DNA of 63,905 nucleotides, filler included, from Dimargaris cristalligena (GCA_003614675.1; 3 parts of 3 records of this genome joined end to end with filler, not necessarily neighbours in it), one strand, 5' to 3'; shown: positions 22,108-63,905, counted from the whole stretch's first letter. Notes: generated by a model not told the origin, from the letters alone. Translations and numbers: made by a program.

Positions 22108-22207
22108 NNNNNNNNNNNNNNNNNNNNNNNNNNNNNNNNNNNNNNNNNNNNTTAATTAATTAANNNNNNNNNNNNNNNNNNNNNNNNNNNNNNNNNNNNN
22201 NNNNNNN
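22108..22207. other. Assembly gap/linker (N44-TTAATTAATTAA-N44)
   Basis: N-run containing a six-frame-stop spacer at 22152-22163. Confidence 0.98.
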
Positions 22208-43710: not shown

Positions 43711-43922
43711 TGTTAGAAAGGTGGCTCATGCCTCTATCAAATTATATTCTTGGAGATTCTCCCATCATAGAGAGAATTATATCCCAACTCTCTATATAGT
43801 CAATAGTCATATAATAAAACACATAGCAGGGTGTATTTCACATAACTCACACAGCTTTCTCTATTTTTATTCACTTTGATATACTAAGGCTTTGCATTGT
43901 AGTATATTCATTCATTTTAACA
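43711..43922 (+). mobile_element. Possible solo LTR (212 bp)
   Basis: Termini TGTTAGAAAG...CATTTTAACA form an imperfect inverted pair; internal CTCTATATA; no CpG; no matching target-site duplication seen. Confidence 0.4.
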
Positions 43923-43949
43923 ATATATAACTGGGCCCCTACTGGGTTT

Positions 43950-44034
43950 AGTTTGATTCCTTATCTTATTCTTACCCCCTAGTTTATCCTAATAGACTAT
44001 ATATATACTCACCCCCCTTGTATTGACTAGTAAG
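43950..44034 (+). repeat. Dispersed repeat, copy of the family at 62535-62680
   Basis: tagtttatcctaatagactatatatatactcaccccccttgtattgactagtaag aligns with tagtttatcctaataaatgttgtatatgctcactccctttatactaactagtaag (62551-62605). Confidence 0.8.
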
Positions 44035-44293
44035 TATAAAGAACTGAAATCAAATCCTTGAAAACTGAACTTTATTCAAAAAAATAGGTGATAAAAGGGA
44101 AAGGTGATAATAGACTTACTGTTCCAAGAGGTGGTAGTAAGGGGGAGTATTTATACTTAAAAGAGGAAGCCTAAATGAAAAGATAGATAATAGAGAAAGG
44201 GAGAGAAGGTCCCAGAATATTGGATGATTAAGTAGAGGGAAAGGGAAGGGAGTTCCCAGATAATAGTATTAGTCATCACAAAGGATAGGTAAT
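44035..44293 (-). mobile_element. LTR fragment (copy A), cut by the linker
   Basis: First 134 bp match 63771-63905; on the minus strand TATAAATA (44148-44155) precedes AATAAA (44071-44076) and the terminus. Confidence 0.7.
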
Positions 44294-44393
44294 NNNNNNN
44301 NNNNNNNNNNNNNNNNNNNNNNNNNNNNNNNNNNNNNTTAATTAATTAANNNNNNNNNNNNNNNNNNNNNNNNNNNNNNNNNNNNNNNNNNNN
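44294..44393. other. Assembly gap/linker (N44-TTAATTAATTAA-N44)
   Basis: Same spacer as at 22108; stop spacer at 44338-44349. Confidence 0.98.
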
Positions 44394-44646
44394 ATTTACC
44401 TATTGTCCCCACGCCCCGCTCTGGGATGCATAGAGCCCGCGCTTGTCGACGGTCCCTTGACCTATTTTTCTTGTTTGTTCGTTGAAGTCCGTGACAACCC
44501 GTCTTCATCTGTCCCCGTTCTTCTTCGATCGACCGAGATATAGTTATATATATAACCAGGACCCCGAGCCGGTACCTCTCTTCTCTATTCCGCTTTATTT
44601 ATTTACCCTCCTTCGCTCCTAGTGTTCCTTATCCGTGCGCTCTAAC

Positions 44647-47600
44647 ATGGCCAATATACCCTTCCGGATAGACCCCGCCAAACAGCCTGCTATTCCGCTA
44701 CACCGTATTCTTAGCCAGTCCCCAAACGGTAAGCTGCCTGATTAATCCCGTGACCCACCCCACCCTTGGGATATGCTCCTCTTACCCAGTTGCAAAGCTG
44801 GCTTTGGTTTGCTCCACGTGCCTCTCTGTAGCTAATCCCATCCCTCCTCCCCTGTGTCCTCTCTTTCGTAATGGCTATAATACCCCATACCTAACCCAAC
44901 CCCCACCCTAACCCTTTCTTCACGTGATCTCGTCCACCACCACCCTCTTGACCTTGCCCCGTTCCTTCCAGATATTATAAACCCCAGCGATCTCGACGCC
45001 TCGGCATTTGATCGCCAGCACCCCTACTATTCAGCCAAACCCCCCCGCCCAACCGATTCCGGTGTGGACTCCCCGTCCCCGCCGCCCGCTGATTTGCCCC
45101 AGCTTGACCGGTGGAAACTCTACAGCAAACTGGATTCCAAACTCCCCCAAAACGGCCGCGTCTCCAACCTTGCCTGGCGTATGATGTACAATCCTGCGAC
45201 CCTGGCCTGGCTGGAAATCCTCGACGCCGACCAAAAGCGTCGGGCCCAGTCGACCGCTTTTCTATCCTCCATGGGCAATAGTCAGCAACAGGCATCCCCA
45301 CCGACCTTTGACCTTTCCCGGCTCATCGAGGGGGGTCTTTTGGAACAGGACCCCATGGGCTTCATCTTTGATCCCACCATGTTCAGCAGTATAGACCCAT
45401 TCTCCTCAACTCCACCGGCCCCGGTGCAGTCCCAGGCCAACCTGAGTCAGATCAACCAGGGCTCTATCACTACCATGTCGTCAGGGAATAGCCAACCCCC
45501 TGCTTCTACCCAACCTCCCGTCACCACCCAGCCAATCGCCCAGCTGCCCGTCACCACAAGCCAGAGCGCCGGGGATGGTAACATGACCATCGATACCACC
45601 ACGCTATACGACTTAACCAACGATCCTTTGGCTTGGGCCTTTGCCCCGAGCGATTTCAATACCCAGGCCGCCTCCCAGGCCCTGGCATACGGCCAGTGCA
45701 TGTTCCCTAACCCCAACACCCAAGTGGTGACCAGTGATTTCTCTGCCTCGAATCAGGGGTTTGCCCCGGCATATCTCCACCCTTCGCTGCCCCTCAATCT
45801 ACTAAAAGCCCAGGGTGTCAGCTCCGTCGGCAACTTCATGGCTAATACCGCCGGGATGCCGTATTCGTCGAACGGGGCTGCCTCCGCCATGTTCAACCCG
45901 TACGATGTTAATGGCGTCCAGTCGACGACCTCCTCCATTAATATCCCCAATGTTCCGGAGCCATCGGTCAATTTCGCCACCCCCGCTGACATGCTCCTGT
46001 CAAGCAGTCCCAATACTCCCACTACGGGCTATTTCGCCCCGTCCTCTCTGCAGACGCCCATGGCCCAGCGACCAGGAAGAGCGATCGCGCATCAACCTAG
46101 TTACTCTACAGGCACTGTCCCGACCAACCTGTGTGATCAGGTTAATCCAGCCAGTAATCAAGTTACCACCAGCATGCTTAGTCCCGCCGCCGTGGCCAAG
46201 TCAATGACCCCGTCTACTACTACCACTACTAACACTACTGCTACGACCCCCTCCACCACCCAAACCAGACACCATGCCCAGGCCCGCTCGGTGGCCTTGC
46301 CTACCGCTATCCTACCGCCCATTGATGACTTGACCATGGCTGCTGCCGCGGCAGCCAAACAATCCGCCAAACTGCCCCACTCTCCCCCGCACTCATTGGC
46401 CAACCGTGGCCACGCAGCATCAACCCCCCGACCTCTGTCGACGACACCAGCATCCTTATCATCCAAGTCTGCGACCGTTGCGGCATCTGCGCGCCGGACC
46501 GACAAATCCGCGATGGAAGGCCGGCAGTGCTCCCACTGTCACGTTACTCGCACATCCCAGTGGCGGCGCGATCCTAACGGGGGCCATTTCTGCAATTCCT
46601 GCGCCTTGGAATACCTTAAACATGGTACGCTGCGGCCCGTGGATCCCAGCTGCAAAGACCGGGAAATCCGTCGGCGAAACCGGGCCAAGGGCAAAAAGGT
46701 AGATACCTCCCGGGGAGGTAATAGTAGTGGTAGCAACAACAAGCATACCCGGGCTACACCAGGAGGGTCCGACTATAAAAGTTCGGAATCAGCGAGTACT
46801 ACGCCTAATACCCCGATTACTGCCGCCACGGCCATGGGCTTATCCGCCCATAATGGTGGTATACTTCCGTCTGGTCAGCAACAGGTCATGATGACCAACG
46901 GATTTAACGGCAATATGGCTATAGGCACTGGAGGAGGAGGAGGAGGCTACCACCGCCGGGGCATGACTAACCTCAGCTTAGATTCGCATGCACTGCGGGC
47001 CGGTCTGCAGGCCGTAGCTGGAGAACATACACCGTCCCCTTCGCCACTCCACACCGTCAGCTCCCCAGTGCAGCAGCAACCGCTCCACCAGCCCCATCAC
47101 TTGGCGTCTGCATCAACATCGGCCTTACCCATCACCCCGTTGTCAGCTAAACGGTTACCTACGTATTCGTCGCCCTCCACCGTGTTACCATCCCTGGCCC
47201 AGACCGTTAGCGCAGGTAGCGGAGGAATTGGCGGTGGTAGCGGACTTGCTCGCCAGAGTCCGGGAATGGTTATTTCGCCTTCTCCCTCGCCTCCCCATTT
47301 GAATCAAATGCACTCGGTGAGCGGGAAGAGTAATAGTAGCAGTGCTGTTGGGACAGGAGGAGGAGTAACCTCCTATCCACCGGCTGGTAAGGCATTGCCC
47401 AGTCTCCAGCGGCTGCCGGCCCAACCGTTTTCGGGAGAAGGGGGAGAGGTCAATAATAATAGTGGAGTAGGATTGACCACACCCATGGATAACAACTCTC
47501 TCCGTATTTCGGGCTATCCCCAGAATAACGGTTATCCATCGTCCATGGCCATAACCAGCGCCGCTATTTCCTCTTCCACCACCACCACTGCTGCTGCGTC

Positions 47601-47823
47601 GAGCTCGGGCCTGGAACACACTGATAAGCGCCGGCGCTTGACCGGGTCCACTATAGCGGCCACAGTAAGCCCCCATTACCTAATGACCCAAGGTTCTTCT
47701 TCCTCTTCGTCGTCCCAGTCGGCGAATTACCACCACCGTCAGTCGGCCATATATCCTAATAATTCGGCCCTTCAGCGTACGCCTCTTTCCTACGAATATA
47801 ATCACCCCGGTGCGGATAACTAA
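44647..47823 (+). CDS. GATA zinc-finger transcription factor with N-terminal DUF1752 (AreA/Gat1-like architecture), 2 exons
   Basis: Exons 44647-44728 and 44972-47823 join in frame. WKLYSK..LPQNGRVSNLAWRMM; CSHC-X17-CNSC finger at 46528-46602 followed by basic IRRRNR. Confidence 0.9.
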
Positions 47824-49150
47824 ACTACATCTAGTCCATAGTGGGCTTGCTCGCCCGTTGACTTCCTTTTATTTTTCCCCCCTTCTTCCGCTTTCTTAGT
47901 CATCACCACTTTTTAGCATCTATTTTTTGTTCTACAGCACAGTTGAGAGTTCATTTCTATTTGCAGGTGAATGTGGTGGGGGAGGGAATAGTTGGTCCCC
48001 AGGTCTCCTCTTGTACCTATTTGGCGAATTATATATATATATATATAGCTCCTCGATTCTTCCCCTCCCCAATTCCCGTCCGTCAATTATTTAATTTCTG
48101 CCAGTTTCCATCCAACTATTATTTTAATATATAAATGTAACATAGTGAATAATTATCTTGTTAATGAATGGGCTACGACTAAAATAAGGGGTAGTTAGCT
48201 GGCTGTATGGGAGAGAGAGAGAGAGGAGGGGATATTATTAGTGCATCCATTATAAATGACACCTGTATTGTAGATCTAAAGGTCATCGGGATAATAGCTT
48301 TCGTGGAGGCGAGCGGGGCCTCAGATGTACATATGTTGGGGAGGCAGCCAACCCCCCTGCTTAAGCTAATGTGCTTCTAATTTAGATGGGCTGAACTGAT
48401 TTAAACTAGTAAAGAAATACAAAGGGTATCGTTGGGCATCTGATCAGCAAGTACGCCTTTGCTTGGCTCTTCCTTCATCAGCAAGGGAGCGTGGAGTATA
48501 ATGGGACTGTCTATAAGGGATAGCTCGCAGATTATAGTAGCATGGGGGAGGCGTGTGTGTATGTGTGCGAATATTATACTCCTTTGCCTATCCGCCTATT
48601 CGATACAAACCTTTTAAATGTCGAACGGAATCCACATGTAAAGGATTTCTTGGATTTACCCTAAAACTAACTTCGGTTGGTGTAGTGAACAAAATGTATA
48701 CTCTACAGTAATAATAATAGATGCGGTTAAATAATGTACCGATTAGCGTGTGTAATACACGTTGGCATTAGCTCCGAATTAAATTTCTAATCAGGTGTCA
48801 ATCGTTTGTGTGTGTGTTGAAGGTAGAGGGGGAGGGTTGCCCACAGCGACTAACGGGCCATACAACGACCAGAAGACGAGAATTATTCACAGATCTATTT
48901 AAACCCACCCCCCTTCGCGCCCCCCTTTGGAATATTTTACTCGCTATTTATTACACCCCCCCCTAGCTTATACCATATATTTTCCGATTTTTACTATTAT
49001 CTGGACTACTGAATTTATCTCTCTTTTCCTACGCCGGCGTGATACACTAGGTACACCGATATTTTATTTTAACCACTCTCGGGTCTAGAGTTCTCCCTTA
49101 ATACGACCAGCCCACCCCACACCTCCACCACCTTGGCTTATATTGCCGCT

Positions 49151-49486
49151 ATGCAGTTCATTTATCTATTCGTCGCGGCCCTTCTTGTAGTCGTTGGGGT
49201 TTCTGGGGCTCCCCGGGTCCCCTCTTCCTACTTCTCCTTCGCGGTGATGATCCCCAGCAAAGCTGAACTTCCCGTTCCAGAGGTCCAACGTCGGCGGGCC
49301 TCGACCACACCCACCACCACCACCACCACCACCACTACTACTACTACTATGCCAATGCGCACCAAGCAGCCGAAAATGATTGTTACTTCGAAGTTAGAAA
49401 GGGCGTATGCCAACGCCCTAGTACACCCTGCCATGTCTAATAACGACTATTGGAAGTTTACTCCCGGCATTTCGAATATATTCTAA
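49151..49486 (+). CDS. Small secreted Thr-rich protein (111 aa)
   Basis: Signal peptide MQFIYLFVAALLVVVGVSG; RRR site; (ACC/ACT)n poly-Thr; TATTTAA upstream at about 48896. Confidence 0.7.
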   Translation: MQFIYLFVAALLVVVGVSGAPRVPSSYFSFAVMIPSKAELPVPEVQRRRASTTPTTTTTTTTTTTTMPMRTKQPKMIVTSKLERAYANALVHPAMSNNDYWKFTPGISNIF

Positions 49487-50582
49487 CCCGTCTCTCTTTT
49501 AATATACGGTACATCGTGTAATCCATGGTCTATCTTCAGTAAGTGTCCCCCCCCACCCCACATTAGTGGGTGGAAAGAGTTACTCTTAATAAACCTATCC
49601 CTTTTTATAGTATATTCTTGTAATCTTTTGGACCTCATTGAATATTCCGCCATGTTACCCTAGTACACCACTGATTAAATATACCCAATTAAAATAGTCT
49701 TCCTTTGGCCACCAATATTAACCTCTTATTGATAATGGATACGAGAATATAGAGAAAGGGGGCTATTTTTAACCAGTAAAACACAGTTACATTCAACGTT
49801 TTTTATTTTTTTATTTTGCTACATAATCCGATTGAACCCCGCTCATATTCGGTCTTTGTAAAACGGCTAAACCCAATACTACGTAGTTGGCAAGCCGATG
49901 CCGACAATTGCTTGATATCGTTTCCATCCAGCTCAATGTGAGCGGGCTACTCCATTTGGGATACCCACCGGTAGGGTGACATTTAAACAGTGCACCTCTA
50001 TCATTGCATTGGACAGCTATTTTTGGAGAGACAACATTCCCAAGTCTACCCTAGCACCATAACCCCGGAAAGGTTCATAATTATACTATACCTCGATGAA
50101 TGATGCTACGAATCTTCGGTATGAGAAGAACTCGAGATTGTTACAGAGGGCTGTGGGTGGAAAGTAGATGGGAAGTTAGGTGGCCTATTCGTTTATTGGG
50201 ATAAGCCTGATCGAGTTGAGTATTCTACATTCTTCTCGAAAAGCATTATCGGTGTATTAAGGGAGGTTTGGCAATATGATAACACAACTCAAATGAACTG
50301 GTGCATCACAGTTTCCAGGCGACAATACCCATACCAAGGTGGAATTCAGTTGCAGGGATTCCAAGCCCTAAGAAAACCCATTTATAGTTAATAATACGAG
50401 GGGCTATTAAATCATTGCAACTTACCTATTCCACAAAAAAAAAAAAAAGGTATACATGGTAGGGACAATGTGAGACTGACCAGAGAGGGGATGGTGAATG
50501 GATACCTAGCTTAGGAAATAGTAGGGGATTTACCCGGTGTTATTTCTCTCTCCCCCCCCGTCCGAAAAGGGAGTCTCCAGCA

Positions 50583-51745
50583 TTAGTCAACCTCCTCAAA
50601 ATCATCATCATCTTGGGAATCGTCGTCCTCGTCCATAGTGTCCTTCGACGGCGTATCGGGGGCGGCGGGTGCCGCGTCAGCCTCGGTTGGTATCGACCGC
50701 TTCGCGGCGAACTCGGGCTTGAGCTGGTAGTTGGCTGAATACCCACCCTTACGGTTGAGGATGGCCACTTCGTTAAGCACTTCTTTGAGGAAGGCCTAAT
50801 TCACGGTTGTCCCACGGCGAGGCGAGGTGAAACGAACAAAAACCCAATACAAAAACATACACATCCACATTAGGGTAGGCAAATGATCAGCTAATGACGC
50901 CTAGAACCTATCAGTTGGCTAGGTAGGCTGCAATGGGTCGAGTGAGCCGTTGTCCTCCGTGGCATTATCTAGTCCCCGATTCCCTCCCCTTACACATCCC
51001 ATTTTAAAGACCTAGAACTGGGCATCGGAATACTCAAAAGAGGGATCCAGAAATAGCGAGTTGGCGGGACTACCCTTTTCATACTTACCACCGGCTGCTC
51101 GGTATGTTCCACGAGCCCCTTCAACGACCAATACGGGTACTTTTCGAAGGCCTTGAACAGCATATTCATCAAATCCTGTTTGGGCATCCGGGTCATCTTG
51201 GATTCGATATACGTGGTCTTCTTCCGGTTCGCCGCGGCATGGTCCTGCATACTACTCGCCAAAATGGGTTTCCGGTAAATGTCGCCCAACCGCTGGACCG
51301 ACCGGACCGGTTTGCCCGCCTCTAAATTGCGCGTGCGCATGATATGGCGGTACGCGTCACTAATCACCGGCGTCACGGCGCATTCGTGGTGGATCGTGCC
51401 CGTCACCGCCGTATGGTGGGTTTTGTTGTTTTCCGAAAACACGTAAGCATTGGTCACCCGACTGTTGGTGATTTTGAGCGTGTATTCTTTGGGAATGTCG
51501 GCGTTTTGCGGGGTGTCCGAAAGGAGAATGGCCAGCCGTTGGCCGGCGGCATCGTCCTGGTCGTAGATGCGCACCTTGCCTAAATCGACGGAGGTGTCGC
51601 TCGCTTGGGTCCACTTTTCGGCGAGAAACTTGGGGATCTTGACTAGCCAGATCTTGGTGTCGAGATTGTCCATGTCGAGCTCCTCGACGTCATCGTCCAT
51701 GACTCCGGCAGCGGGCTGTTTGGTTTGGGCATTAGAAGGAGGCAT
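50583..51745 (-). CDS. TFG2: Transcription initiation factor IIF beta subunit (RAP30), 2 exons
   Basis: Exons 51745-51089 and 50795-50583. IWLVKIPKFLAEKW, IPKEYTL, YVFSE, GTIHHEC, RMPKQDLMNMLFKAFEKYPYWSLKGLVEHTEQPVAFLKEVL, YQLKPEF. Confidence 0.95.
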
Positions 51746-52640
51746 GGCGGAGAATGTAATAATTTAATTGGATAAATGGGTATGATGGGAATCGGAATTT
51801 AGAATGTCTTGCTGTATTGTTTTTTTTTTTTTAAAAAAAAAGGTATGGGAGAAAGTACAAAGGATAAAGTAGGTGGAAGCGGTTCACGGAGAGTCCGTCC
51901 AATATAACGAACGTGGGAGATTAGAAGAGAATCGTAGAAGTAGGGTAATGTGAGACAAGCAAGGCCCGGGGGAATAAGCAAGTGTGACTTATAGTATCAG
52001 GTTTGAATGAAAGAAGCTAAGTAGACAGGCCAAATGGGGGCATATGTGCTTTGAGGTAAAATTAACCAAGCGGAGCTACAGTGGAGCCTTCAGCTTCGAA
52101 AGCGGCGGAAGTTCTCGAGGCCTGTATTTAGGAAGAGGAGCTTTGCACCAGTGGCGTTTGGAAGTCCAATGGGGTAGTAAAGGAAATACCCCACAACTCC
52201 TGCCCAATGTGACTAAGAAGGGTTGCTTCCAAATTTAACTGGCTTAGTCCACATGCTTCTAAATATCCCGTTCAAAAAAGTATGGAACCCCCATTTTTAC
52301 GTCAACTGCCAGATGGCCCGCAACTTGGGTATTTCGTTGATCCATCTTCAGCCGCATTCTTTAATGAACATATGAATGGCTCGAATGCGATATATCCGGC
52401 ACACCAGTAACAATTCAAGGGGGCTTAACTGGTCATCGGGCCAATTAGTCTCTTCCCGTCAACGTAGAAGACACTCACTCCTCCTTCCCTAAATATTAAA
52501 CAAACATAGCCGCCCACGTTTTAAAATAGGAAAGTAAAGCCAATATTATCCAGTAACAGTTTATTAATGATAGTAACAGCATCCCCCCCTCCCCCGCTTG
52601 CCCTTCCCATACCACAGAAGAGGCCTTCTTTACTCCTCGC

Positions 52641-55586
52641 CTAATGCAGCTCTGGATCCTGCTTACCAGCGAGAATAGCCTGGGTTTTTTCTACCAATTG
52701 CTCTAGGGCCGACTGGGGATTAGGGATCACTTGCTGGCGGGCCATTTCCTCTAGGGTATACCGAGCGTGTTTCATCTGGTGTAGGTGAAGCCAACCTTTT
52801 AGCAGAACATAGGCTAACTGGCGGTTCCAGCGGGGTGGGTGGAAATGGTGGAGCCAAGGGGCCGCGCCGGCGGAGTTCCCGGGGACACTGGGTTCCGCCG
52901 GGGAGTCGGAGACGGATGCAGAAGCCGCTGAAGTGGTGGATTCTGACGCAGTCCACTGCTCCGCCGGCTCGACCGGGTCCAAACGGGCGAGATGCAACCG
53001 CAACATATCCGGCCCATGTTCGGCCCAAACTGTGTATAAGCGTATGGTTTCCTGCAGAAGGGTCAACAGTCGCCGGGCGTAATGCGGGTAGCGGAGCCGG
53101 AAGAGGATATTAAACATCGTTAAATAACATGACAACGGGACGGGACAGAAGGACACCCAGTCGTCCGCCGAGGGTGTTTGCCAACGGTGAATGAGGGGAT
53201 CAAAAGAGTCGTACAAAAGGGCGAGTGAAGCCGTGGTAGCTGAGGGGTGGTGAGCCGGGGTAGGGAGTTCCGGCAAATCGGGTAAGCGCCAAATATCCGC
53301 CGCTCCCGTCACGGTGAAGAACCGGGGCAAAATCGTTCGTACGAACGGGTCCAATTCGCATAACCGGAAAAAGGTGCGAAAAGTACCTTCCAAATCGCCC
53401 ACCGCGGCATACGCCGCCAGTAGGGTCCGGTACCCTTCCTGCCGGAGCCGCGGACGTTGGGTAAAGGAGGCGTGGGTATCCAGAACCCGGTGGGCCTCGA
53501 CGTACCGGCGGTTGTCCAATAAGCCCCGGATCAGTTGGTTAGCCAGCACGGGGGTCAAGACGGCCCGCCCGGTCGGATCGGCTAATTGGTAGCGCTGGTA
53601 GAGGGACATGGCGCGGTCGGGCTGTCGATGGCGCATAAAGACGGTTAGCGCCACGCCTAGTTCAATCGAACCGTGGGGTCCGTAGACGGGCTGGTCCGGG
53701 GCCGTAGTGCGCATTAAATGAGTCCACGATTGGCGATGGGCCGCTTCCGCGTCCTGGTACATTTGGGGGTTACTGCGGGCCGATCGTTGGATTCGATCCA
53801 GGCGCGTGGCCAATACCGTATGGTGGATCAGATCGTGGTACAGCTGGGTAACAGTGGTGGAGGGGTGGTTGTGCTGCTCGGGGTCCATGCGAATCAGGTC
53901 CAGAATATTCTGCGGACCTACCCCAGTGAGGCCCAACAGGTCGGCAGGTCCGGTCCCGTAGGTGTAGTGAAACTGGACTAGGCCGCGCAATAGGACATCG
54001 AGTAGGATGCGATCCCACGGTAGGCGCAAGTGATTAAATTCGCGTACGAGCTGGTAGACTTTGGTGAGGTTGAATTGGTGCATGTAGCCCGTAATCATAA
54101 TAGTGAAAGTATAGGCATCGGGGGCCAAAAAAGAGAGGGCTTGTTTCCACCACCACCCGGACGCCGCGGTCGAAGCTAAGGCCGCCATGGAGCCGGGCGT
54201 GTCGCAGTCGGGGGTCGCTTCGGACAGACCGGTTATTGGTGGGCCCGTCTGGTGGTCTCGCCGGCGTAAATAAGCAATATGCTGCAGATCCGCGAAGACC
54301 GACTCGGCATCATCCAAGGCGCCCACTTTAACCAGACCATCTAAATGAGCGTTCAGCACGCTGATACTAAGGCACGGAAAGACCCGGGGTAAGACCCGGG
54401 CCACTAAGGGCTGATCCAGTGGCCATACACCGGGCTGGGGCTGACGTACGGCCTGTTGCCAAAGTCGCTGGGCCAAATCAGCGCGCTGGCAGCGGTGGAG
54501 GCGCTTAAACACATGTCGGTAGAGAGTCGGGGCAAAAAAAATACGCCGTTGGTAGGATAATTCCAGAGTGTGGATCATGGGAAGCCACCGGTGGGTCTGG
54601 AGTAGACTGATGATCAGGCTGGCCCATAGGGTTTGTTGCGCTCGGGAATCGCCGGTGCATAGCGGAAGATCGGAGGTAAGTTGTTCGAAAGCCGACTCAT
54701 GCCACCGCACATCGGCGGCCAGAGCACGGATAAGACGGTAAAGGACGGCAAAAGTAGGTGGGATATCCCAGTGCTGACGCATAACACTGTACAGCTGGAA
54801 TACTGCAAGGCAATCCCGGGTAGTCTGAGCGTAGCAGGACAGTAGGTAATACCAGGTGGTGCTGTTGGCCGATTCAGTGGATGCGCCGAGGGTTGTGAGG
54901 TCACTAATATCATTGGGTACGATATGCCACCTTACTCCCGCCTCGACCGCTTGGGCGTATTCGGCGAGCAAATAATGGGCGCGAAGGATTAAGTTGCGGT
55001 TGGGTATAGTTAGCGAAACTCCGGCGGCCTCCATATCTAAGCTAACCGCAATAATGCGCTGGGAGTTGGGCCGACTGGGCTGGGCTTCTAAGATATTTAG
55101 GAGACATTGGTAGTCCCAGGGATCCAAGAGGGTCCGGGTGATCGTTGATGGTGCGGGCCTCGTCGGGGTGGATCGATGGGTCGGGGGGCGATTATGGGGT
55201 CGATAATCGACCAGTTGGTCGTAGGCCTGGAGGGACGCCTTCTGATCACGCGCCAGGAGCGCTTTTCTCAGGGTGGCTAATAAATAAAAAATATGCGGAT
55301 CGGGTGATAATCCGGCTGATTCATCGCTCGATGCCGGTCGAGTTACCGAGGTATGGCACCTGAGGGATGGCCCGGGATACCAACGAATCTGTGTAAAAAA
55401 ACCATGTTTGGCGTTCCGCGTACGGCTGTGGGTTGCCGGGTGTGCCCCATGGGGATGAATAAATATGTGGTTTGGGGGATCAAGTAGCGGGAGACTTGCG
55501 AACCGGAGTCGGTGGTATCGGGTTAATACATCACGACAAATAGCGACGGGTCCACTCCGGCCAGGCACCCAGCTTGCCTTGGGCAT
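52641..55586 (-). CDS. Pentatricopeptide-repeat-like alpha-solenoid protein, probably mitochondrial
   Basis: PPR-like units PDAYTFTIMITGY, LNAHLDGLVKVGALDDAESVF, ANQLIRGLLDNRRYVEAHRVL, YRTLLAAYAAVGDLEG; basic N-terminus. Confidence 0.75.
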   Translation of the reverse strand: MPKASWVPGRSGPVAICRDVLTRYHRLRFASLPLLDPPNHIFIHPHGAHPATHSRTRNAKHGFFTQIRWYPGPSLRCHTSVTRPASSDESAGLSPDPHIFYLLATLRKALLARDQKASLQAYDQLVDYRPHNRPPTHRSTPTRPAPSTITRTLLDPWDYQCLLNILEAQPSRPNSQRIIAVSLDMEAAGVSLTIPNRNLILRAHYLLAEYAQAVEAGVRWHIVPNDISDLTTLGASTESANSTTWYYLLSCYAQTTRDCLAVFQLYSVMRQHWDIPPTFAVLYRLIRALAADVRWHESAFEQLTSDLPLCTGDSRAQQTLWASLIISLLQTHRWLPMIHTLELSYQRRIFFAPTLYRHVFKRLHRCQRADLAQRLWQQAVRQPQPGVWPLDQPLVARVLPRVFPCLSISVLNAHLDGLVKVGALDDAESVFADLQHIAYLRRRDHQTGPPITGLSEATPDCDTPGSMAALASTAASGWWWKQALSFLAPDAYTFTIMITGYMHQFNLTKVYQLVREFNHLRLPWDRILLDVLLRGLVQFHYTYGTGPADLLGLTGVGPQNILDLIRMDPEQHNHPSTTVTQLYHDLIHHTVLATRLDRIQRSARSNPQMYQDAEAAHRQSWTHLMRTTAPDQPVYGPHGSIELGVALTVFMRHRQPDRAMSLYQRYQLADPTGRAVLTPVLANQLIRGLLDNRRYVEAHRVLDTHASFTQRPRLRQEGYRTLLAAYAAVGDLEGTFRTFFRLCELDPFVRTILPRFFTVTGAADIWRLPDLPELPTPAHHPSATTASLALLYDSFDPLIHRWQTPSADDWVSFCPVPLSCYLTMFNILFRLRYPHYARRLLTLLQETIRLYTVWAEHGPDMLRLHLARLDPVEPAEQWTASESTTSAASASVSDSPAEPSVPGNSAGAAPWLHHFHPPRWNRQLAYVLLKGWLHLHQMKHARYTLEEMARQQVIPNPQSALEQLVEKTQAILAGKQDPELH

Positions 55587-56506
55587 AGAGGCATGGGGTC
55601 ACTTGCCGTGATGGTGGGGTGAGTTGGTAGAGGGTACAGGCGGGAGGGCAGTAGAGAATAAACCGGACAGGCGGCGAATGCGTCCCCAAGGACCAACAGA
55701 GGGGGTAGGTGAAATTGGTGGTTTACACCCGAGGATCGTTGACGACGAGGGGAGGGGGGGGGAATCGTAGGATATAACACTCGACGGTCCGTTGAAGTTG
55801 GAGTGGGAAATGGGCTCTGGAGGTTTGCCTGGTTTGGAATATATTAGAAGTGGATCTCGAGGTGGATCAGCGCCGCTTGAATTAAATAACAGCCCCGAAA
55901 CTGGGGAGTACGTCGTGGCAATCGACTTGGTGTAGCAAAGGGGCGGGTGAATCTCGGGTAGTTTAGGTGGCCCCGATTGCTGAAGGAATCGAAAAAGTGA
56001 CTATAGTACAAGTTATGCGGCGGACCTAAGAAAAGACGATCAGTGCCTTACAAACCTCAAGCCAATCGTCTCCTCTTTTTAAGTTACCACCCAAAGGCGG
56101 GGTAAACCAATGTCCTGTAGTACTAGAGAGGTAAAGCGGGTTAACTTGCCCCAGACATAAACTGACTGGCCGTTCGAAGAAGCCAACTCTTTTTTAGAAT
56201 CCCCGCCAACAGTGGCCGTGACCCGCTCAGAGCGCCGGGAGGCTTGGGGAAATATGCCCACAAGTCGTGGGCCAGTTCACCTCAGCTATTGTTACAAAGC
56301 GATTCCATACCATACTGCTGACCACTTTGAAGCCTGACCATAAATTTGATTTTAGTTGGAAAACCCAATCTAGTGTGGGGCTGTCTATTTGTTTGCTGGA
56401 CTTCCACCATACCTCCCATTACTTCGCCATTCTTATATAAAAGGGGACGTTCCATACCTTCTTTACTTCTTCAGTGCCTCTACAAACGGCGTGCACTTTT
56501 TTTACC

Positions 56507-58425
56507 ATGAGCCAAGCACATCGACCCCTATACGAACAGTCCTCCCAGTTTCGCAACTGGCGGTTTTCCCGCGAGAAACTGCATGAGATACGTAAGCTGA
56601 CCAACCAAGCCGGCGTTGAGCGAGCCCAAACGAACATCGAGGCTGAACAGGTAGGTTATAGATGTGGAGGGAAACCACTCGTTGGCCTGCTCTTGTCATT
56701 TCTAACCAGACTCCTCCGCGCTGATGCTGGTTGCACTTGAGTATTTCCCTTAACTCGTTATTAATATAGCCCCGACACTGACCTGGTTCGCTTATATACG
56801 CACCTTTTGCTCAATGGGGGGTTATTTAGAATGAACACTTGGCTCGGGACGACTCGGCGCCTCAGGCAGCGAACAAGCAAGTCAACTACTTGAGCTTAGA
56901 CGACGAACTTGCCCTATGCCATTTCTACGAAACGAAAATCGACACATTTGCCAGGCACTTTAAACTGCCGAATCAGGTCAAGGTAAATTAGCCAGGTTTT
57001 GGTAATGCCGTTTAATTTAGTTATTTTTTCATTCAACCGCTAACCACCCATTCAACAACTTCTTTACACCGACCCTTATACTAATATATACGTATATATG
57101 TATCTATATTTCTCCGGGTGGACATTGCAACCTAACCATTTGCTTAACCATGTGTCTCGACTACTAGGCCACGGCGATTGTCTACATGAAGCGGTTTTTT
57201 CTATACAATACGGTTATGGACTATTCCCCTAAAAGCGTCATGTAAGTGGCCCGCTCATTTAATGCGAAACTGTTTAGAAATGAATTTCCTACGATTATTC
57301 AACCCCTTATCCGGACAAGTTTAACTAACGCGCAGCCATAATATATACTCATATATATTTGTCGAACCTGGACTGCCCAATGGTGTAAAGGTTAACCTGT
57401 CTCTACTTAGCCTCCAAAACTGAAAATAAGTTTATCCAGGTCGAAGATTTCGCCAAACCAATCCCTAAAACCTCGTCACAAGATATCCTAACTTACGAGT
57501 TTGTAGTTTCTCAGAGCCTTAAATTTGAATATACTGTACACCACCCATTCTCGCCTCTTTATGGGTTTTATCTCGACGCTCAGGTATAAATTCTTTACCT
57601 TTTAAACAACTTTCCCTGGAGCCCCACCGTGCACTTGATTTTATTCGGTCAACCAAAAAGCCCGCATGAATACGCCTTTCTCGTGCTAAACCCTGCCTAA
57701 TTTTGCCCAGTATTCATTTTCTTGTTTTTTGGCGTATCATGTATCTTAACCATAACCCCCTCCCCTTTCGTTTCCCGTGTAGATATTAAACGATAACATC
57801 AGCCTCTTGACCCAGGTATATTCCAAAGCCATGGACTATTGCAATACCTCCCTATACACTGACCTGACCTTCATCTACTTCCCCGGCCAAATTGCCCTAG
57901 CATGCCTGAAATTGGCGGCCCAAGACCTGAACTGGAATTTTGCCGGCTACCTACACCAAAAGTACTCTGATGAAGCAACCCGGTTGGCCCTAGAAGCTAT
58001 AGTGGACGATATCATCGCCACCATCAAGGCCCGCAAGCCGGTATCCACCGACATTGTACGCGAAGTAGACCGGCGTTTGATTTACTGCCGCAACCCCGAA
58101 AAGGATCCATCGAGTCTACTGTAAGTTTTTTGATTTCCCGAATTTGCATATGTTGGTGGTTGAGTAGTTGCATCCGCGTCGGTTAGGTATTGGTGGGTAA
58201 TCCCCAGTGGTTATCCCCATGTCGAGTGGCTTTATTACACCGTTACTGACTATTTGGTTACCAACTGCTGTATTATTTTTTAACATGTCTATCTGGCATG
58301 TTGCTCATTATTACCGTAGGTTCAGCAAAAAAATCAAAGAAAATGAGGAAGAGGAGGAACTGCGCCGACAAGAGAAATATAGCCAGAATCCGTCAGTTTC
58401 GATATTTAATAATGGCGAGTCCTAA
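56507..58425 (+). CDS. CCL1: Cyclin H (Ccl1/Mcs2, TFIIK/CAK subunit), 6 exons
   Basis: Exons 56507-56650, 56830-56982, 57168-57241, 57391-57583, 57783-58120, 58320-58425. LYEQSSQFRNWRF, ATAIVYMKRFFL, MLTCLYLASKTEN, LKFEYTVHHPF, YFPGQIALA, LIYCRNPE. Confidence 0.93.
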
Positions 58426-59070
58426 TATCGCAGCATTCTACTCAAGACACTTCTCGTTAAATACCAATACCAATTTGGGAAAATAAACTACTTTCGTTTA
58501 TATATATTATGACAGGGCCAACTATATTATACTCCATATTTAATGACCCTAACCACTTGCGAAAGCATGGGGTTGGTATTCGCCTTTGTTGTTTTGCCTA
58601 GCGAAATAAAAATGTTTGACAATGTGCTCCAGCTCAAAATTATGACACGGGGACAGGTTCGGGGAAACAGGGGACAATAAATTGGTGCTAAAATCTAGCA
58701 GGGTCTGCTTTGGAGCTAGCATTGCCAATACTTATATTTTCATGACTAAACTGTCACCTATATTATTACGAGCACATCCAATCTCGGGCCGACTATGAAT
58801 TAAATCTGATCACGTGGCTGTTGTTTTGATTTCGGAGTTTACAGTACTGAGTGTTTCATGGCAACAATATTATGGGGAATCGCTTTACCAGGCAAGGAAA
58901 TGAGCTTTTCATATGTATCTCCTATTGCCCATGCCATTCATTTCCCTGACTTCAACTCTTTAAATTCTTATACCGACTATGAGACCCCTATTACCATATC
59001 TCTAAACACTATTGCGCCAACGCATCCTCTATTTTGATTTCCTCCCCCAATAGCCTCCAACTTACCAGCC

Positions 59071-61691
59071 ATGAATGCGGCCATGCAGCAGAAAACCTCC
59101 GAACTCGACTTGTAAGAACGAGGCCACTCTACCTAGCTGAATTGACTCATTTCCCTCGAAGTACTAAGCCGGTATCCACGCGACCGTAGAAGTACATCGC
59201 AAAGGACAGTGCCTTACCGCCATTCAACCCCCCCCCCTTCATTCCTAAATTACGAAGCTGGCTTCTATACAAGGCCCCTAACCTATCCGTTTTATATGAC
59301 CTATCCTATATTACGTGTTCCCTAGACTGAGTCAAGAGTATCGGAAGGTCTCTTTTCAAATACACCAATTCGAGGAGGCCTTTCTCAAACAACAAAAGCG
59401 AAATGAACCCACCTCACCATCGCGCGATACCTCGTCCGCCAAGGCCGTCGAAGCGGATCTTGCCTATTCAAAGGTATGTCAATTCAGTGGGCATGATTAT
59501 GGGAGTTGGCTGGTTCTTGGTTCATATATATGCCCGGTAGTTTGCGAAACACGGTATCATTATTATTATCCGGATATGTACCTCCACTCAAGTATATACA
59601 ACCTTGTCGGATTTCCTATCAAACGAAGTGGTCAGCGAACACATATTTAATATCGAAATTAAAGCTCCATAAAAATATGTGTAATTTTTTTGGGGGTCTC
59701 CCTAACATAGAGCCTATTTTCCAAGCTTAAGTTCAACTACCTCGAACTGGCCACCAAGGAGAAATTCATCCGGGATTTGATGCAGGAGCCGCCAATTGAG
59801 ATTGAACAGGAGGACATTCAGGAGCTCGAGGTCCTTAATATGGACCACAAACAGGCGTTGAAAAAGCGAAAGACGGAAACGCAGGCTCGTAAAGAGCAGA
59901 TTGACTACATAATTGACAACCTAGCCATCGGTAAGTCTGAGTTAACTAGTTATATGACACTACTATACCCAGTCCTCCGAACACCAAGTTCCCACTTATT
60001 TTAAACTACAATACGTAGTTTTACGCTCAATAGTGAGAAGCTATACCGGTGCTCTTACCAGTAGATCACCATTAATAACCCGCCCATTAAGTTTGTTTGA
60101 TATAATCCCTGAACCTGATGTGACTGCAGGCTGCCAGAGCATCGAAACCGAGTTTGGCCAAACTCGGCAGCTCCTAACTGATATTCGAGATTTGGTAATG
60201 TATTGCTCCGGTTTCGACCAAACTTTGTCATAATTTATGACTTTTAGTCTAGTTGTATATAGCCACCGTATATATGTTTGTGGGACCGAAGGCTTAAATA
60301 CTTAGCAGAAGCATTTCCCAGGTTAATATTAACGTTTTTGCGGCTTCATCGGTTCCCCATAATATGTTCCGTACTTAGGAGGCCCAAATCAAAGAGCTGG
60401 AAGGCGACGAAAACGGAGAACAGGTAAATGCCTCATTCTACTTATTTGGACTTTGCTTCGGGTCAATATGCACCGACAATTGTTGTCCCACACTCCCATT
60501 TAGTGATGGCTTGATTGAAAGAAACCTCCCTAACCATCTAATATATGATCGATATTTGGACCTGTAATAGAAATTGACCATCCAAGAATCCCAAAAAGTG
60601 TTAAACGAACAGGTAAGTTAGAAGAACCCAATCAATAGGGATAGGCCACCGAAGCACATTACAGGCTCCGATTGGGGGTTTTTTTTTGTTGCTTCGCCCT
60701 ACTACGTTGCTTGAGGCATACGCAAAAGTATCCCAGGCCCCCCGCGACAGCATTTCAGGAATACCTATTGACAGCAAAATGTGGTGTATGGCTACCATTT
60801 TTTTCTGAATCATATATTATTTAAAAACCACAGCTGGCTAGTTTGGAAACCATGAATAATGAAATTGAGCTGGCCCAGACCCAGTTGAACGAGTCGCGGA
60901 CGTCGGTGGAGGACTTAGAAAGAGAACTCGAGAAATACCAAGCCATCCAGAGGTCGGAGGAAGCGATTGCAGCGGAAGCAGTTCGGCTAGCCCAGCAGAA
61001 GGATCCCCAGATTCAAGAGCTCTGTCAGTGGTAGGTTTTCAGGGAATTGGGCAGCCATGAGGCGAGTTTCAACGACCATGATCCGGCATTTAAATTGTCC
61101 CCCCCCACAACAATGAGTTTGGGCAATCTCGTTTGAAGTGGGGTGTATTTGCATACACCTTAACAGGCCGTGCCCTCTTCTCATCTTTCCTGGGATGTCT
61201 ATACTACATCAATATTTTGAAAACTTAGGTACGACGAGGCCCGCCATACTATGGTCGAATTAACCGGAATCCAGAATTTTCGGACATGCCCCCCTCATTC
61301 CATCATAATTGAATACGACCGTCGTGGCCCAACCGGCCAGTATACTGGCCTTGAAATTAACATGCAGGACGATGGCAAACGTGGCATTAAGAACGCCAAG
61401 GTACGCCTTTTACCTACTTGTTTAACCCCATTGATTTCCCCGACATGCATCTGTACCGACACTATTTCCGCCACAGCTAACTCGCCTCAGAGCAGTGATC
61501 TTGCTTTCCCAGTCTCACTAAACGAGCCACCCCGCTGTTGATTACTCTGTCTATCCACACCTGCATGGAACTTCCAGGTAATCGATGGGTCCCAAGTTCC
61601 AATCGATACTTTAGTCGCTGAGGCAAACGCATCCGGCGACTTAAGCTCTCTAATACGAACAGTAAGCCAGCAATTGGCGGCTCCCTATTAA
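59071..61691 (+). CDS. Kinetochore protein of the Sos7/Kre28/Zwint family, 10 exons
   Basis: Exons 59071-59111, 59326-59473, 59711-59930, 60130-60194, 60379-60423, 60571-60612, 60834-61030, 61229-61400, 61578-61691 are all phase-compatible (nine listed; treat the exon count as approximate). Sos7-like signature DLAYSKSLFSKLKFNYLELATKEKFIRDL..PP; long coiled coil. Confidence 0.72.
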
Positions 61692-61764
61692 TGTCGAAAT
61701 GAAACGATTCGGTGCTACGTAAGACGGCTCATCAGTGGACTACAGGGGCTTCTTCTAAGGTCGC

Positions 61765-63770
61765 CAATATTAATAGTATATAAGTAAAAAATGATATCTC
61801 CAACAATGACAACCTGAAGAGGCTATCAATAATCATAAGTTATATTTATTATAATGCTGTACCATAGGCAAACAATATATCTAATTAATTCTAGGTGGCT
61901 TCACCTGAACTATGATATATGGATATATACATTAGTTATCAAAGACCTTTATTAAGCATATATATAAGCAAAATGTAATGGTTGTGGCCAATAACATATT
62001 GGAAATATAGATTGAATAGTAAACACAAGTACCTTCAGATACAACTGAAAAGATTCAAAGAAGAGAGAAAGAACCACAAGGGGCAAAGCTAGATGCCCAC
62101 GGTTGGTTTTATTGAATTAGATAATAGTAGTAATAATGATTAGGATGAAGTCCAAGGTATAGAAGGATATAGTAATGGCTAGAATATAGTCCTGAGTATA
62201 GGATGGGCCAATCACAGAGATAGAATCAGTGGGATGGGGGAAATGAATTTCCAACCTATCAGCCCTTCTAATCCACCTTAATCCAGATACCCTACTGTCC
62301 ACCCTTATTAGGCCTTATAGCACCATATTAAACTTCCCATGGTCACCCCTGGTACTATGGGATTACCCTATATCATATAGCCCTCCCCCTTCCAGACTCC
62401 AGCTCTTTACACTAATCACTTAACCTGCTGATCCAAAGACTCTTCTGGTTACCATAAGAGTCTTCCAGATACTAGTAGCCATCTGGTTGGCCTAGTTTCA
62501 CTATATACCTTAGTTACCCATAGTCTTCCCTTGGGACTGGTTAGATTCCTTAGTTTATCCTAATAAATGTTGTATATGCTCACTCCCTTTATACTAACTA
62601 GTAAGTGTACCCACTGCACAGCCCTTGCATGTACCTGCATCCAGTAAACTTTTATTAGTTAGTACTATGCCCTTACCCAGTGCTAGGATCCACTTGGCCA
62701 AGAATAAGCCCCATCCACCATTAGAAGCCTATCCTTAAGACTCTTGATGGACAAAGAGTAGTTAACCCAGGTAACAGTTAAACAGTTGGTAATCTAAGTG
62801 CAGTGTGGTAAATAAAGTCAGCAAGCTATTTTTAATAGACAAGTATATGGGTTAATCCATCTTAATCAGGTTAAGGCCTTTCTGTGAAACTCACCCTTAG
62901 TAGGCCCTATTTTACAAAATCTCCCTCACATAACAATACCCACTATCATGGGGATCATCCTGTAACCCCCCTGGTTTCTATTATCAGACTCTAACCATTA
63001 CACTCAAGCATTGATTTGAAGACTATTTTATTCTCATCAGAGTCTTTCAGATAGCTATGGCTAACCACTAACCTCTTAGATAATTCTTAGAATTTCTTTC
63101 TGAATAACCCTACTGTAATATCCAACTATATAAATATTCTACTAATATTGTAACCTATTAGTTCCTTAGCTTATATTTCTATATATTTATCTAATAAACT
63201 CCTTATGAACCCACCCTATTAGTAGTATAAGTACACTCAGTACTATTTATCTTTTTTTTTATTCAGCATCCCCTGTACTAAGTAGCTAAGTATTAACTAA
63301 GAATACTCCTAGTACCATATCTAATAGAAGCCCTCCCATATAAGCTCTTACTAGATTAAGAGCAGTTTATTACTATAATATATCATAATAGTACAATATT
63401 TAGTACAGGTATCTTAAAATAAACCACTAGTAAATAAGGTCACACAGGGCAGTCTAACTCATTATAGTCAGACCTTAGCCCTAGAGATATTTAACTAAAG
63501 AGATTATAAGGATATAATGCCTCTTTAGTAGTAATTCTTTATACTATAGTAATTAATTTCTTAATTTAGCTAGTATGATTACCTAGGTTAGCCTCTCTTA
63601 ATCTAAGAGTCCTAATAGTAGGATTTTAATGATAAGTGGGGCTTAGGCTTAGCTGAGTAGTTATTAGTATTAGGTATAGGGCATAGTACTAACTAGATAA
63701 GGCTAGTAGTCAAATATATATAAGGGATATACAGGGGGCACCCCTACTAGTAAGTATAAAGGGTATATGT
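61765..63770. mobile_element. Heavily mutated transposon/repeat relic region
   Basis: No CpG seen from 62102 to the window end; TpA-rich; no long ORF; contains an inverted repeat pair and a copy of the 43950 repeat. Confidence 0.7.
62585..63763. repeat. Diverged inverted repeat pair of about 90 bp (62585-62673 and 63678-63763)
   Basis: tagttagtactatgccct (62656-62673) is the exact reverse complement of agggcatagtactaacta (63678-63695); ccctttatactaactagta pairs with tactagtaagtataaaggg with one mismatch. Confidence 0.8.
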
Positions 63771-63905
63771 TGTAAAGAACTGAAATCAAATCCTTAAAAA
63801 CTGAACTTTATTTAAAAAAATAGATGATAAGAAGGGAAAGGTGATGATAAACTTGCTGTTCCAAGAGGTGGCAGCAAGGGGGAGTATTTATACTTGAAAG
63901 GGGAA
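63771..63905 (-). mobile_element. LTR fragment (copy B), runs off the window end
   Basis: Begins TGTAAAG on the plus strand (CA terminus on minus); minus-strand TATA and AATAAA; matches 44035-44168. Confidence 0.72.

Follow-up and report, generated by a model that had tools for sequence, protein, structure and literature searches.

The window (the whole stretch of DNA that was analysed, 63,905 nucleotides) consists of three contigs of Dimargaris cristalligena with N linkers between them, the artificial linker N44-TTAATTAATTAA-N44 standing at 44294..44393 and an identical one at 22108-22207. An open reading frame for a Band 7 exon is identical over residues 74-304 to BJ085DRAFT_20961 of this species (233/239 overall), the mismatch being confined to the last 8 aligned residues, presumably the end of the exon. 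Dimargaris cristalligena is placed in the Kickxellomycota (earlier classed in the Zoopagomycota), outside Dikarya. The preliminary description of this DNA proposed a cytosine-directed process in repeats in case the organism was an early-diverging fungus, which it is; the source is therefore no known ascomycete competent for repeat-induced point mutation (RIP).

Nested repeats at the contig ends

Repeats occupy the end of contig 2 (43636..44293) and the end of the window (62101..63905). On the latter side, unique contigs end at 62055/62056 in all four runs, and in run X5 the contigs over the last three bins (61971-63905) add up to a depth 150- to 470-fold that of unique DNA, a rise that sets in with the bin 61971-62621. 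A repeated piece, W (62007..62255), has copies about 83% alike within contigs of about 2 kb from other runs (42 differing letters in 249 nt, two contig records). It is followed by repeat X (62296..62776, plus strand), 481 nt long with LTR-like ends (TG...CA) and no matching target-site duplication around it (cctac before, gttaa after). At the 3' boundary of X, 40 to 49 contigs per run continue unlike past 62776. At the 5' boundary, 12 contigs (in runs X1 and X3) are unlike before 62296/62298, but a larger set breaks at 62306 (30 in run X5, 27 in run X3), which leaves about 10 nt of uncertainty in its position. An inverted partial copy of X at 63579..63763 (minus strand) matches 62585-62774 at 70.7% over 191 nt (E = 2e-15), with 137 matches, 32 transitions, 15 transversions and 7 gap columns. 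A direct partial copy at 43974..44038 (plus strand) matches 62545-62609 with an alignment score of 90, where shuffled sequences average 42 and reach 64 at most; further upstream of 43974, X homology is absent.

Each of these partial copies adjoins, on its downstream side, a plus-strand copy of a third repeat, B. Copy 1 (44035..44168) is the 5' end of the family, shares 4 letters with the direct X copy at their junction and ends 126 nt before the terminus of contig 2; copy 2 (63771..63905), next to the inverted X copy, is truncated by the window end. The two are homologous (91.7% over 133 nt, E = 2e-47, blastn of copy 1 against 63773-63905), and repeat-finding agrees. Letters 63771-63772 of copy 2 are TG, an element terminus, and copy 1 has TA at the same place; the 3' end of B lies beyond the window. 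The start of B recurs widely: 63770-63773 is the landing point of at least 10 joints among the 15 listed, coming from 62255, 62349, 62361, 62494, 62558, 62620, 62764 and others, and in 13 contigs of run X1 the sequence upstream of 63771 is unlike.

The two B copies had been described as two LTR copies, a label that the layout does not confirm. The LTR pair of a single retrotransposon would flank a gag-pol interior on one DNA molecule. Here the linker at 44294-44393 lies between them, together with ordinary host genes (an AreA-like GATA factor, TFIIF-beta, a PPR protein and a cyclin); the copies are on different contigs and so are not two LTRs of one element, and their upstream flanks are unlike, with X direct in one case and inverted in the other and different X positions at the junction. 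The two B copies come from separate insertions of one highly abundant family, of which each shows the 5' end, and each insertion lies nested in a copy of repeat X.

Differences between repeat copies

In a global alignment of the B copies (135 columns), the differences counted earlier by hand were all recovered: 11 substitutions, every one a transition, and one indel, an extra G at 63831 in copy 2. Eight of the 11 oppose TpG or CpA to TpA (in copy 1 coordinates, 44036, 44060, 44077, 44109, 44118, 44135, 44138 and 44159), again as first reported, and the remaining three are at CpC (44088 and 44164) and CpT (44113). Of the 11 sites, 7 have the A/T state in copy 1 and the other 4 have it in copy 2; changes are thus present in both, a further point on which the preliminary description holds. 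Taken alone, the significance of this pair is modest: 11 transitions of 11 compare with 65% (26/40) among strain differences in unique DNA (p = 0.009), and 8 sites of 11 with A as the next base compare with 38% expected from composition (p = 0.02).

Could such changes have arisen before insertion, during retroelement replication, through APOBEC-type cDNA editing or reverse-transcriptase errors? The TG at the start of B and the TG...CA ends of X fit LTR-type elements, and the B-pair substitutions are transitions only. However, cDNA editing leaves a one-strand bias, whereas each copy carries G-to-A and C-to-T changes side by side on one strand (5 + 2 in one copy and 3 + 1 in the other, n = 11, direction assumed). 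Moreover, neither a retroelement or transposon protein domain nor a reverse-transcriptase remnant was found in the 12 reading frames of the two repeat blocks (0/12, Pfam, E up to 1), and the complete CpG loss over unrelated pieces (W, X, B and the intervening stretch), described below, would be unexpected. We regard this explanation as very improbable.

A larger sample was obtained by adding two further repeat pairs of the window to the B pair; these three partly overlapping pairs come from about 2.5 kb of repeat DNA, with changes unpolarised and X 62585-62609 entering two of the pairs. Among C-bearing sites, C/T polymorphism affects 24 of 38 CpA, 14 of 58 CpT and 4 of 35 CpC, with no CpG left. 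CpA sites are thus polymorphic 7 times more often than CpC and CpT together (odds ratio 7.1, p = 2.7e-6). This preference speaks for a true RIP-like defence, in which duplicates would be recognised by their homology and hit by bursts of active deamination or mutation (a premeiotic phase being one example), with CpG preferred to CpA and an enzyme other than the ascomycete RID. The mixture of G-to-A and C-to-T within each B copy, which over 11 changes of assumed direction gives no strand-polar run, counts against it.

The comparison with unique DNA also weighs against a RIP-like defence. Single-nucleotide differences of a second strain in the flanking unique DNA comprise 26 transitions, whose next base is G in 10 cases, A in 8, T in 6 and C in 2; the 16 non-CpG ones (CpA:CpT:CpC, 8:6:2) have the same proportions as the repeats (24:14:4, p = 0.88). 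Transitions and transversions number 54:17 in the three repeat pairs and 26:14 in unique DNA (p = 0.27), and the repeat excess becomes nominally significant once CpG transitions are removed from the unique set (16:14, p = 0.033). In the contigs, 77% of variable places are transitions (153/198 in run X1, 133/174 in X2, 165/217 in X5 and 150/196 in X3), which is in line with the cytosine decay favoured below. The shared context ranking and the non-significant transition excess favour the view that no repeat-directed process is at work, and that old, neutral, non-coding repeats merely display the ordinary mutation spectrum, the composition of the family and small samples; the lack of any remaining transposon domain in the repeat blocks points the same way.

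CpG loss and the repeat/unique boundary

The dominant repeat-specific signal, absent from the preliminary description, is a complete loss of CpG. There is no CpG in the 1805 nt of 62101..63905 (GC 0.36), where base composition predicts 57.8 and the non-coding level of the genome 46 (Poisson P ~8e-21), and none in the 658 nt of 43636..44293, which contains the direct partial X and B copy 1 and where 18.3 and 14.6 are expected, respectively (P ~4e-7). The last CpG ahead of the latter block is at 43634, and the CpG-free zone at the window end begins no more than about 50 nt from the point where unique DNA gives way to repeats. Seven blocks of unique non-coding DNA have CpG observed/expected ratios of 0.66-0.92, so that in this window CpG depletion is confined to the repeats. 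A mutation spectrum that leaves such ratios in unique DNA could not have emptied 1805 + 658 nt of CpG, and the onset of the loss so close to the boundary likewise argues against the absence of a repeat-directed process.

The same argument is made by other genomic copies, which keep CpG where the window has TpG or CpA. Over letters 62139-62208, other contigs carry two CpGs and one CpA, and a second copy of a duplicated unit in this part of the window has TpG and TpA at two such places (compared by eye, unaligned). The loose-end consensuses of contigs that break at 62306 contain CpG, and at 62445-62446 TG in the window faces CA in a consensus built from 20-21 contigs, these being the alternative products of a single CpG. 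Less-decayed genomic copies therefore exist. Taking both sides together, we consider it unlikely that no repeat-directed process is involved.

Dinucleotide frequencies tell more about the path of decay. In 62101-63905 the observed/expected ratio is 1.39 for TpA, 0.82 for CpA and 0.72 for TpG, and over both repeat blocks the ranges are 1.13-1.39, 0.82-0.95 and 0.72-0.74, respectively. Sequences are regarded as RIP-positive when TpA/ApT exceeds 0.89 and (CpA+TpG)/(ApC+GpT) is below 1.03. Both blocks pass these thresholds, with values of 1.42 and 0.85 in 62101-63905 and of 1.11 and 1.00 in 43636-44293. The first block has a composite RIP index of 0.58 and the second a weak one of 0.11, whereas the seven unique blocks range from -0.35 to +0.08, the larger of them being without a positive signal. 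This contrast, and the TpA excess with low CpA and TpG, favour a RIP-like defence, whereas the slightly positive index of two unique blocks (0.04 and 0.08) favours the view that nothing is directed at repeats.

Set beside unique non-coding DNA, the repeats are thus distinguished by CpG loss, found in them only, but not by the ranking CpA > CpT > CpC, which appears in both. The repeat-targeted cytosine decay proposed earlier survives in part: CpA-biased transitions are real and the RIP indices positive, but the CpA bias is not shown to be specific to repeats.

A probable cytosine decay and its counterparts in other fungi

The explanation that we favour, and to which we give about an even chance, is a cytosine-to-thymine decay restricted to repeats and probably driven by methylation, acting on B copies that are separate insertions nested in X. 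The decay order in repeats would be CpG (complete loss) far ahead of CpA, then CpT, then CpC. A DNMT1-class enzyme would methylate cytosine-5 in repeats, with CpG as its main target and CpA as a weaker one (CpA methylation being assumed), and 5-methylcytosine would deaminate to thymine over a long time. Decay at CpG alone predicts an excess of TpG and CpA, yet both are low and TpA is raised, which calls for a second step in the CpA context; this weaker decay may take the TpG/CpA products on to TpA. Methylation-type decay accounts for the complete CpG loss no less well than RIP does, and methylation by such an enzyme, slow rather than episodic, is the most likely course. The relatives Coemansia and Linderina have proteins within the DNMT1 part of the tree, according to the available part of PMC10538959. 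Against the methylation reading, 6mA rather than 5mC is described as dominant in early-diverging fungi (PMC13297926, in excerpt), and the weak RIP index of 43636-44293 also counts against the favoured explanation.

A closely similar order of targets is found in two ascomycetes. The MATE repeats of Aspergillus nidulans (PMC2621366, in part) show the same CpG-then-CpA order, and Tuber melanosporum has CpA and CpG signatures (PMC4352252, in part), both largely sparing CpT and CpC; they also share the TpA excess and positive RIP indices, and lend support to a RIP-like defence in Dimargaris. However, both are ascomycetes with a RID/Masc1-type gene, whereas Dimargaris belongs to the Kickxellomycota, where none is known, and its transition:transversion ratio is modest and its CpA bias not shown to be repeat-specific. 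RID/Masc1 is described in Ascomycota only (PMC4352252, PMC13297926), which counts against the RIP-like reading.

Neurospora crassa offers a second comparison. As in its RIP, C:G to T:A changes affect duplicated DNA with CpA preferred over CpT and CpC, and the Dimargaris repeats combine a positive TpA/ApT with a low (CpA+TpG)/(ApC+GpT). RIP in Neurospora depends on RID, is premeiotic, has CpG as a minor target and leaves few similar copies. In Dimargaris, by contrast, CpG is hit first, and copies that agree at 80% or more are still present in hundreds of genome-equivalents, which is a further point against a RIP-like defence. The main target of the Neurospora process is CpA (PMC7862722, in part).

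Hypermutation by RIP or RIP-like processes is considered a feature of Dikarya. Within Dikarya but outside the ascomycetes, Pucciniomycotina (Microbotryum, Puccinia, Melampsora) resemble Dimargaris in having CpG-depleted repeats, and their CpG/TpCpG repeat hypermutation has DNMT1-class candidates only, in the portions available of PMC3318451 and PMC4352252. They differ in that the Dimargaris repeats are devoid of any CpG (not TpCpG only), have a CpA-to-TpA component and are depleted rather than enriched in TpG/CpA. A further precedent, which favours the RIP-like reading, is Zoophthora radicans (Entomophthorales), a non-Dikarya zygomycete from another Zoopagomycota lineage, with a positive composite RIP index and a RIP-index signal reported in 24.2% of genome windows; its authors suggest, with caveats, that RIP may act outside Dikarya (PMC11105155, in part). 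That report, in the part available, gives windowed indices only, to which the Dimargaris data add copy alignments, per-context rates and the repeat/unique contrast, although over only about 2.5 kb and in a different subphylum. The process had been put forward as unreported, and because of this Entomophthorales signal the word holds for the present lineage only.

A 2025 kingdom-wide k-mer screen, based on scaffolds above 50 kb, found RIP-like signatures restricted to ascomycete classes (PMC12543289, in excerpt), which again speaks against a RIP-like defence in Dimargaris. The assembly is fragmented (contigs of about 22 kb), so that screens of long scaffolds only would miss the Dimargaris signal. 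On balance, we think a homology-directed, RIP-like cytosine mutator in the Dimargaritales, with CpG preferred to CpA and without the ascomycete RID, unlikely. If it were true, repeat-induced mutation would predate Dikarya or have arisen independently in a zygomycete lineage.

Our data point to a cytosine decay aimed at repeats that is not known to have been described in this fungal lineage. CpG-free, CpA-biased repeats in a mycoparasite of the Kickxellomycota indicate that in this lineage, too, repeats are or once were marked or mutated through their cytosines, and Dimargaris provides a test case for the question whether RIP-like defence has a greater age or a wider distribution than has been assumed.

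The two B copies and their genomic setting

The window joins three contigs (1-22107, 22208-44293 and 44394 to the end) through two identical artificial linkers at 22108-22207 and 44294-44393, each consisting of 44 N, TTAATTAATTAA and 44 N, so that distances and 'neighbourhood' across a linker are meaningless. Two copies of B, an abundant repeat family, are present on the + strand: copy 1 (44035-44168) lies 126 nt from the end of contig 2, and copy 2 (63771-63905) is truncated by the end of the window. Global alignment reproduced exactly, in count and coordinates, the transition-only difference, mostly CpA or TpG versus TpA, that had been reported between them. The copies differ by 11 substitutions, all 11 of them transitions, and one indel; eight substitutions oppose TpG or CpA to TpA, and of the other three, two are at CpC and one is at CpT. 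Copy 1 carries A/T at seven of the sites, copy 2 at the remaining four. The copies are 91.7% alike over 133 nt (E = 2e-47), and when the repeat blocks 62101-63905 and 43636-44293 were aligned locally with tolerance for transitions, only spurious extension past this core resulted.

The preliminary description called these two stretches LTR copies. Reading them as the LTR pair of one element had to be abandoned, because the sequence between them contains a linker (44294-44393) and ordinary genes of the host: an AreA-like GATA factor (44881-47823, + strand), TFIIF-beta (50990-51763), a PPR protein (52641-55598) and a cyclin fragment (57783-58124). The first of these, an AreA/GAT1-like ORF, encodes 980 residues with GATA and GATA_AreA domains; a word-seeded search of 5.8 billion proteins (8000 candidates) gave no match at E <= 0.001, and the nearest protein-atlas clusters give only mixed hints, at phylum level (Ascomycota 0.94, Mucoromycota 0.93).

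Several features were recorded elsewhere in the window. A 35-nt motif occurs three times near the start of contig 1, at 105-139, 286-320 and 327-361 (94% identity). A Band 7 ORF on the minus strand (15179-16144) is identical over residues 74-304 to the hypothetical protein BJ085DRAFT_20961 of Dimargaris cristalligena (233/239 overall), with divergence only in the last 8 aligned residues, where the parting point is presumably an exon end; the next best named matches are from Dispira simplex (89%) and from further species of Dimargaris (77-80%). Between this gene and a cis-prenyltransferase gene lies an intergenic, imperfect palindrome of 57 nt (16916-16972, 84% self-complementary). On contig 2, an NSUN2-type RNA cytosine-5 methyltransferase gene (40594-43166, + strand) with RsmB/F, pre-PUA and PUA domains and at least 3 exons ends about 470 nt upstream of the repeat block at 43636-44293. 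The enzyme acts on RNA, not DNA, and is probably unrelated to the repeat signature.

How the repeats are built

Contigs of four runs (coded X1, X2, X3 and X5) were placed on the window at 80% likeness or more. In all four, unique depth reaches 62055/62056 and then stops. Summed depth in X5 over the last three bins (61971-63905) was 35,333, 28,702 and 87,643 against about 188 in unique DNA, that is, 150-470x; this shows that the repeat families are very abundant, summed depth itself not being a copy number. Among the 15 joints listed out of 98, ten link varied places to 63770-63773; partners include 62255, 62349, 62361, 62494, 62558, 62620 and 62764. Together with the unlike sequence found upstream of 63771 in thirteen X1 contigs, these joints identify 63771 (TG...) as a true element end.

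The second repeat, X, which hosts B insertions, spans 62296-62776 (481 nt) and has LTR-like TG...CA ends set by the points where contigs diverge: 40 to 49 contigs per run part past 62776 (...CA), and 12 contigs, in X1 and in X3, before 62296/62298 (TG...). A larger set (30 contigs in X5, 27 in X3) parts at 62306 instead, which leaves a margin of about 10 nt on the 5' boundary. No matching duplication was seen in the flanking sequence inspected around X, and a six-frame scan of both repeat blocks for transposon protein domains, with stops read as X, gave no Pfam match in any of the 12 frames at E up to 1. 'LTR' as a class for these repeats is plausible but unproven. When metagenome contigs were scanned for exact 21-nt matches that might reveal more copies, one locus came up; it has only a 22-nt word in common with the window and was dismissed as a chance match.

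Directly before copy 1 of B stands a direct piece of X (43974-44038, matching 62545-62609), and X-like homology in contig 2 stops at 43974, with none further upstream. Directly before copy 2 stands an inverted piece (63579-63763, matching 62585-62774). As the preceding pieces differ, the two copies represent two independent B insertions into X-type repeats. In each of the four runs the segment 62708-63799 assembles into a single exact contig (0-1 differences) whose depth is close to single-copy, despite the many contigs at least 80% alike that map there; the layout of the nest, inverted X piece included, is therefore real, common to both studies and no assembly chimera.

Loss of CpG and the CpA component

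The strongest signal in the repeat DNA is the loss of CpG. Two stretches stand out as the longest in the window without any CpG: the repeat nest at 62101-63905 (1805 nt) and the end of contig 2 at 43636-44293 (658 nt, up to the linker). Base composition predicts 57.8 and 18.3 CpGs for them, respectively; none is observed. Scaling this expectation by 0.8, which is about what unique non-coding DNA shows, puts the chance of zero CpG at about 8e-21 and 4e-7. In seven unique non-coding blocks the observed/expected ratio (o/e) is 0.66-0.92, and the CpG-free zone sets in within about 50 nt of where unique contigs end. Because CpG of every kind is gone, the loss is not confined to TpCpG; editing linked to replication appears very improbable as its source.

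CpG is retained in snippets of other genomic copies. In place of 62140-62207 (68 nt), X2 and X3 contigs hold 29 letters, with two CpGs and a CpA, and by-eye reading of the second window copy of the duplicated unit finds TpG and TpA opposite two of these. The window copy of this segment appears internally duplicated when compared with copies elsewhere in the genome. At 62445-62446, TG in the window stands against CA in the consensus of 20-21 contigs, these being the two products that a single CpG can leave. The loss of CpG gives good support to cytosine decay that is restricted to repeats.

CpG is not the only dinucleotide affected. In 62101-63905 and 43636-44293, respectively, TpA is high (o/e 1.39 and 1.13) and CpA (0.82 and 0.95) and TpG (0.72 and 0.74) are low; CpC/GpG and CpT/ApG are raised. 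RIP indices for 62101-63905 are 1.42 for TpA/ApT, 0.85 for (CpA+TpG)/(ApC+GpT) and 0.58 for the composite, which ranges from -0.35 to +0.08 in unique blocks. Decay at CpG only does not explain low TpG and CpA together with high TpA, and a weaker step in CpA context is therefore needed. We pooled the three alignable repeat pairs: B; X versus inverted X, with 137 matching positions, 32 transitions and 15 transversions; and the contig 2 X piece versus X, with 49, 11 and 2, respectively. Because X positions 62585-62609 enter two of these pairs, they are not entirely independent. Taking the 42 of 54 transitions with an unambiguous neighbour, the C/T-polymorphic fraction of C-bearing sites is 24/38 for CpA, 14/58 for CpT and 4/35 for CpC (CpA versus CpT plus CpC, Fisher's odds ratio 7.1, p = 2.7e-6).

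The question arises as to whether this bias is peculiar to repeats. Over the unique DNA at 44394-62055, two long X5 contigs, from a second strain or haplotype, show 43 differences from the window in about 17.6 kb; the 40 listed comprise 26 transitions and 14 transversions. Sorted by the base that follows the C, these transitions number 10 (G), 8 (A), 6 (T) and 2 (C), with nearly equal opportunity, and the 10 of 26 at CpG suggest that CpG mutability is raised in unique DNA too. The non-CpG A:T:C split of 8:6:2 (n = 16) is indistinguishable from the 24:14:4 of the repeats (p = 0.88), and the order CpA > CpT > CpC may apply to transitions throughout this genome. Neutral decay, acting without any repeat-directed process, is an improbable account.

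A homology-triggered, RIP-like process (RIP, repeat-induced point mutation) would have the CpA bias of the repeats on its side, and we consider it unlikely, if slightly less so than neutral decay. The shared context split argues against it, as does the ratio of transitions to transversions, 54:17 in the three repeat pairs and 26:14 in the listed unique-DNA differences (p = 0.27); the difference is nominally significant against the unique set stripped of CpG transitions (16:14, p = 0.033). Moreover, G-to-A and C-to-T changes are mixed inside each B copy, very many copies 80-95% alike persist, and variable places in the placed contigs of the four runs are 76-77% transitions (153/198, 133/174, 165/217 and 150/196), a high proportion, yet far from exclusive.

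Methylation, RIP and the lineage

The simplest mechanism would be methylation of the repeats followed by deamination, to which a weaker CpA-context step would be added, either through non-CpG methylation or through the background bias of the genome in DNA free of constraint. We give this combined reading about even chances. Kickxellales relatives are reported to carry DNMT1-clade proteins (PMC10538959). The CpG-then-CpA order reported for the MATE repeats of Aspergillus nidulans (PMC2621366) matches that of the Dimargaris repeats, as do the CpA plus CpG signatures described in Tuber melanosporum (PMC4352252). According to the latter study, the CpA signature accompanied RID/Masc1-type genes, found there only in Ascomycota, and CpG-only signatures in Pucciniomycotina accompanied Masc2/DNMT1-class genes (see also PMC3318451).

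NCBI taxonomy places the species in Kickxellomycota, Dimargaritales (Zoopagomycota, Kickxellomycotina in older usage); it is thus an early-diverging fungus, as had been supposed conditionally, and not a known RIP-competent ascomycete. A 2025 kingdom-wide screen, covering scaffolds > 50 kb only, reports RIP-like k-mer signatures in four ascomycete classes only (PMC12543289). The Entomophthora genome paper describes positive RIP indices in Zoophthora radicans and raises, with caveats, the possibility of RIP activity beyond Dikarya (PMC11105155). The literature searched yielded no report of RIP, 5mC or CpG depletion in Dimargaris; preprint supplements and broad DNMT surveys may hold relevant tables.

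The earlier reading, RIP-like mutation or methylation-driven decay, is partly supported: repeat-restricted cytosine decay outside Dikarya stands on the CpG loss. The cytosine-decay signature is real and restricted to repeats in a non-Dikarya fungus. It is of a known kind; what is new, as far as the reports found go, is the lineage in which it occurs.
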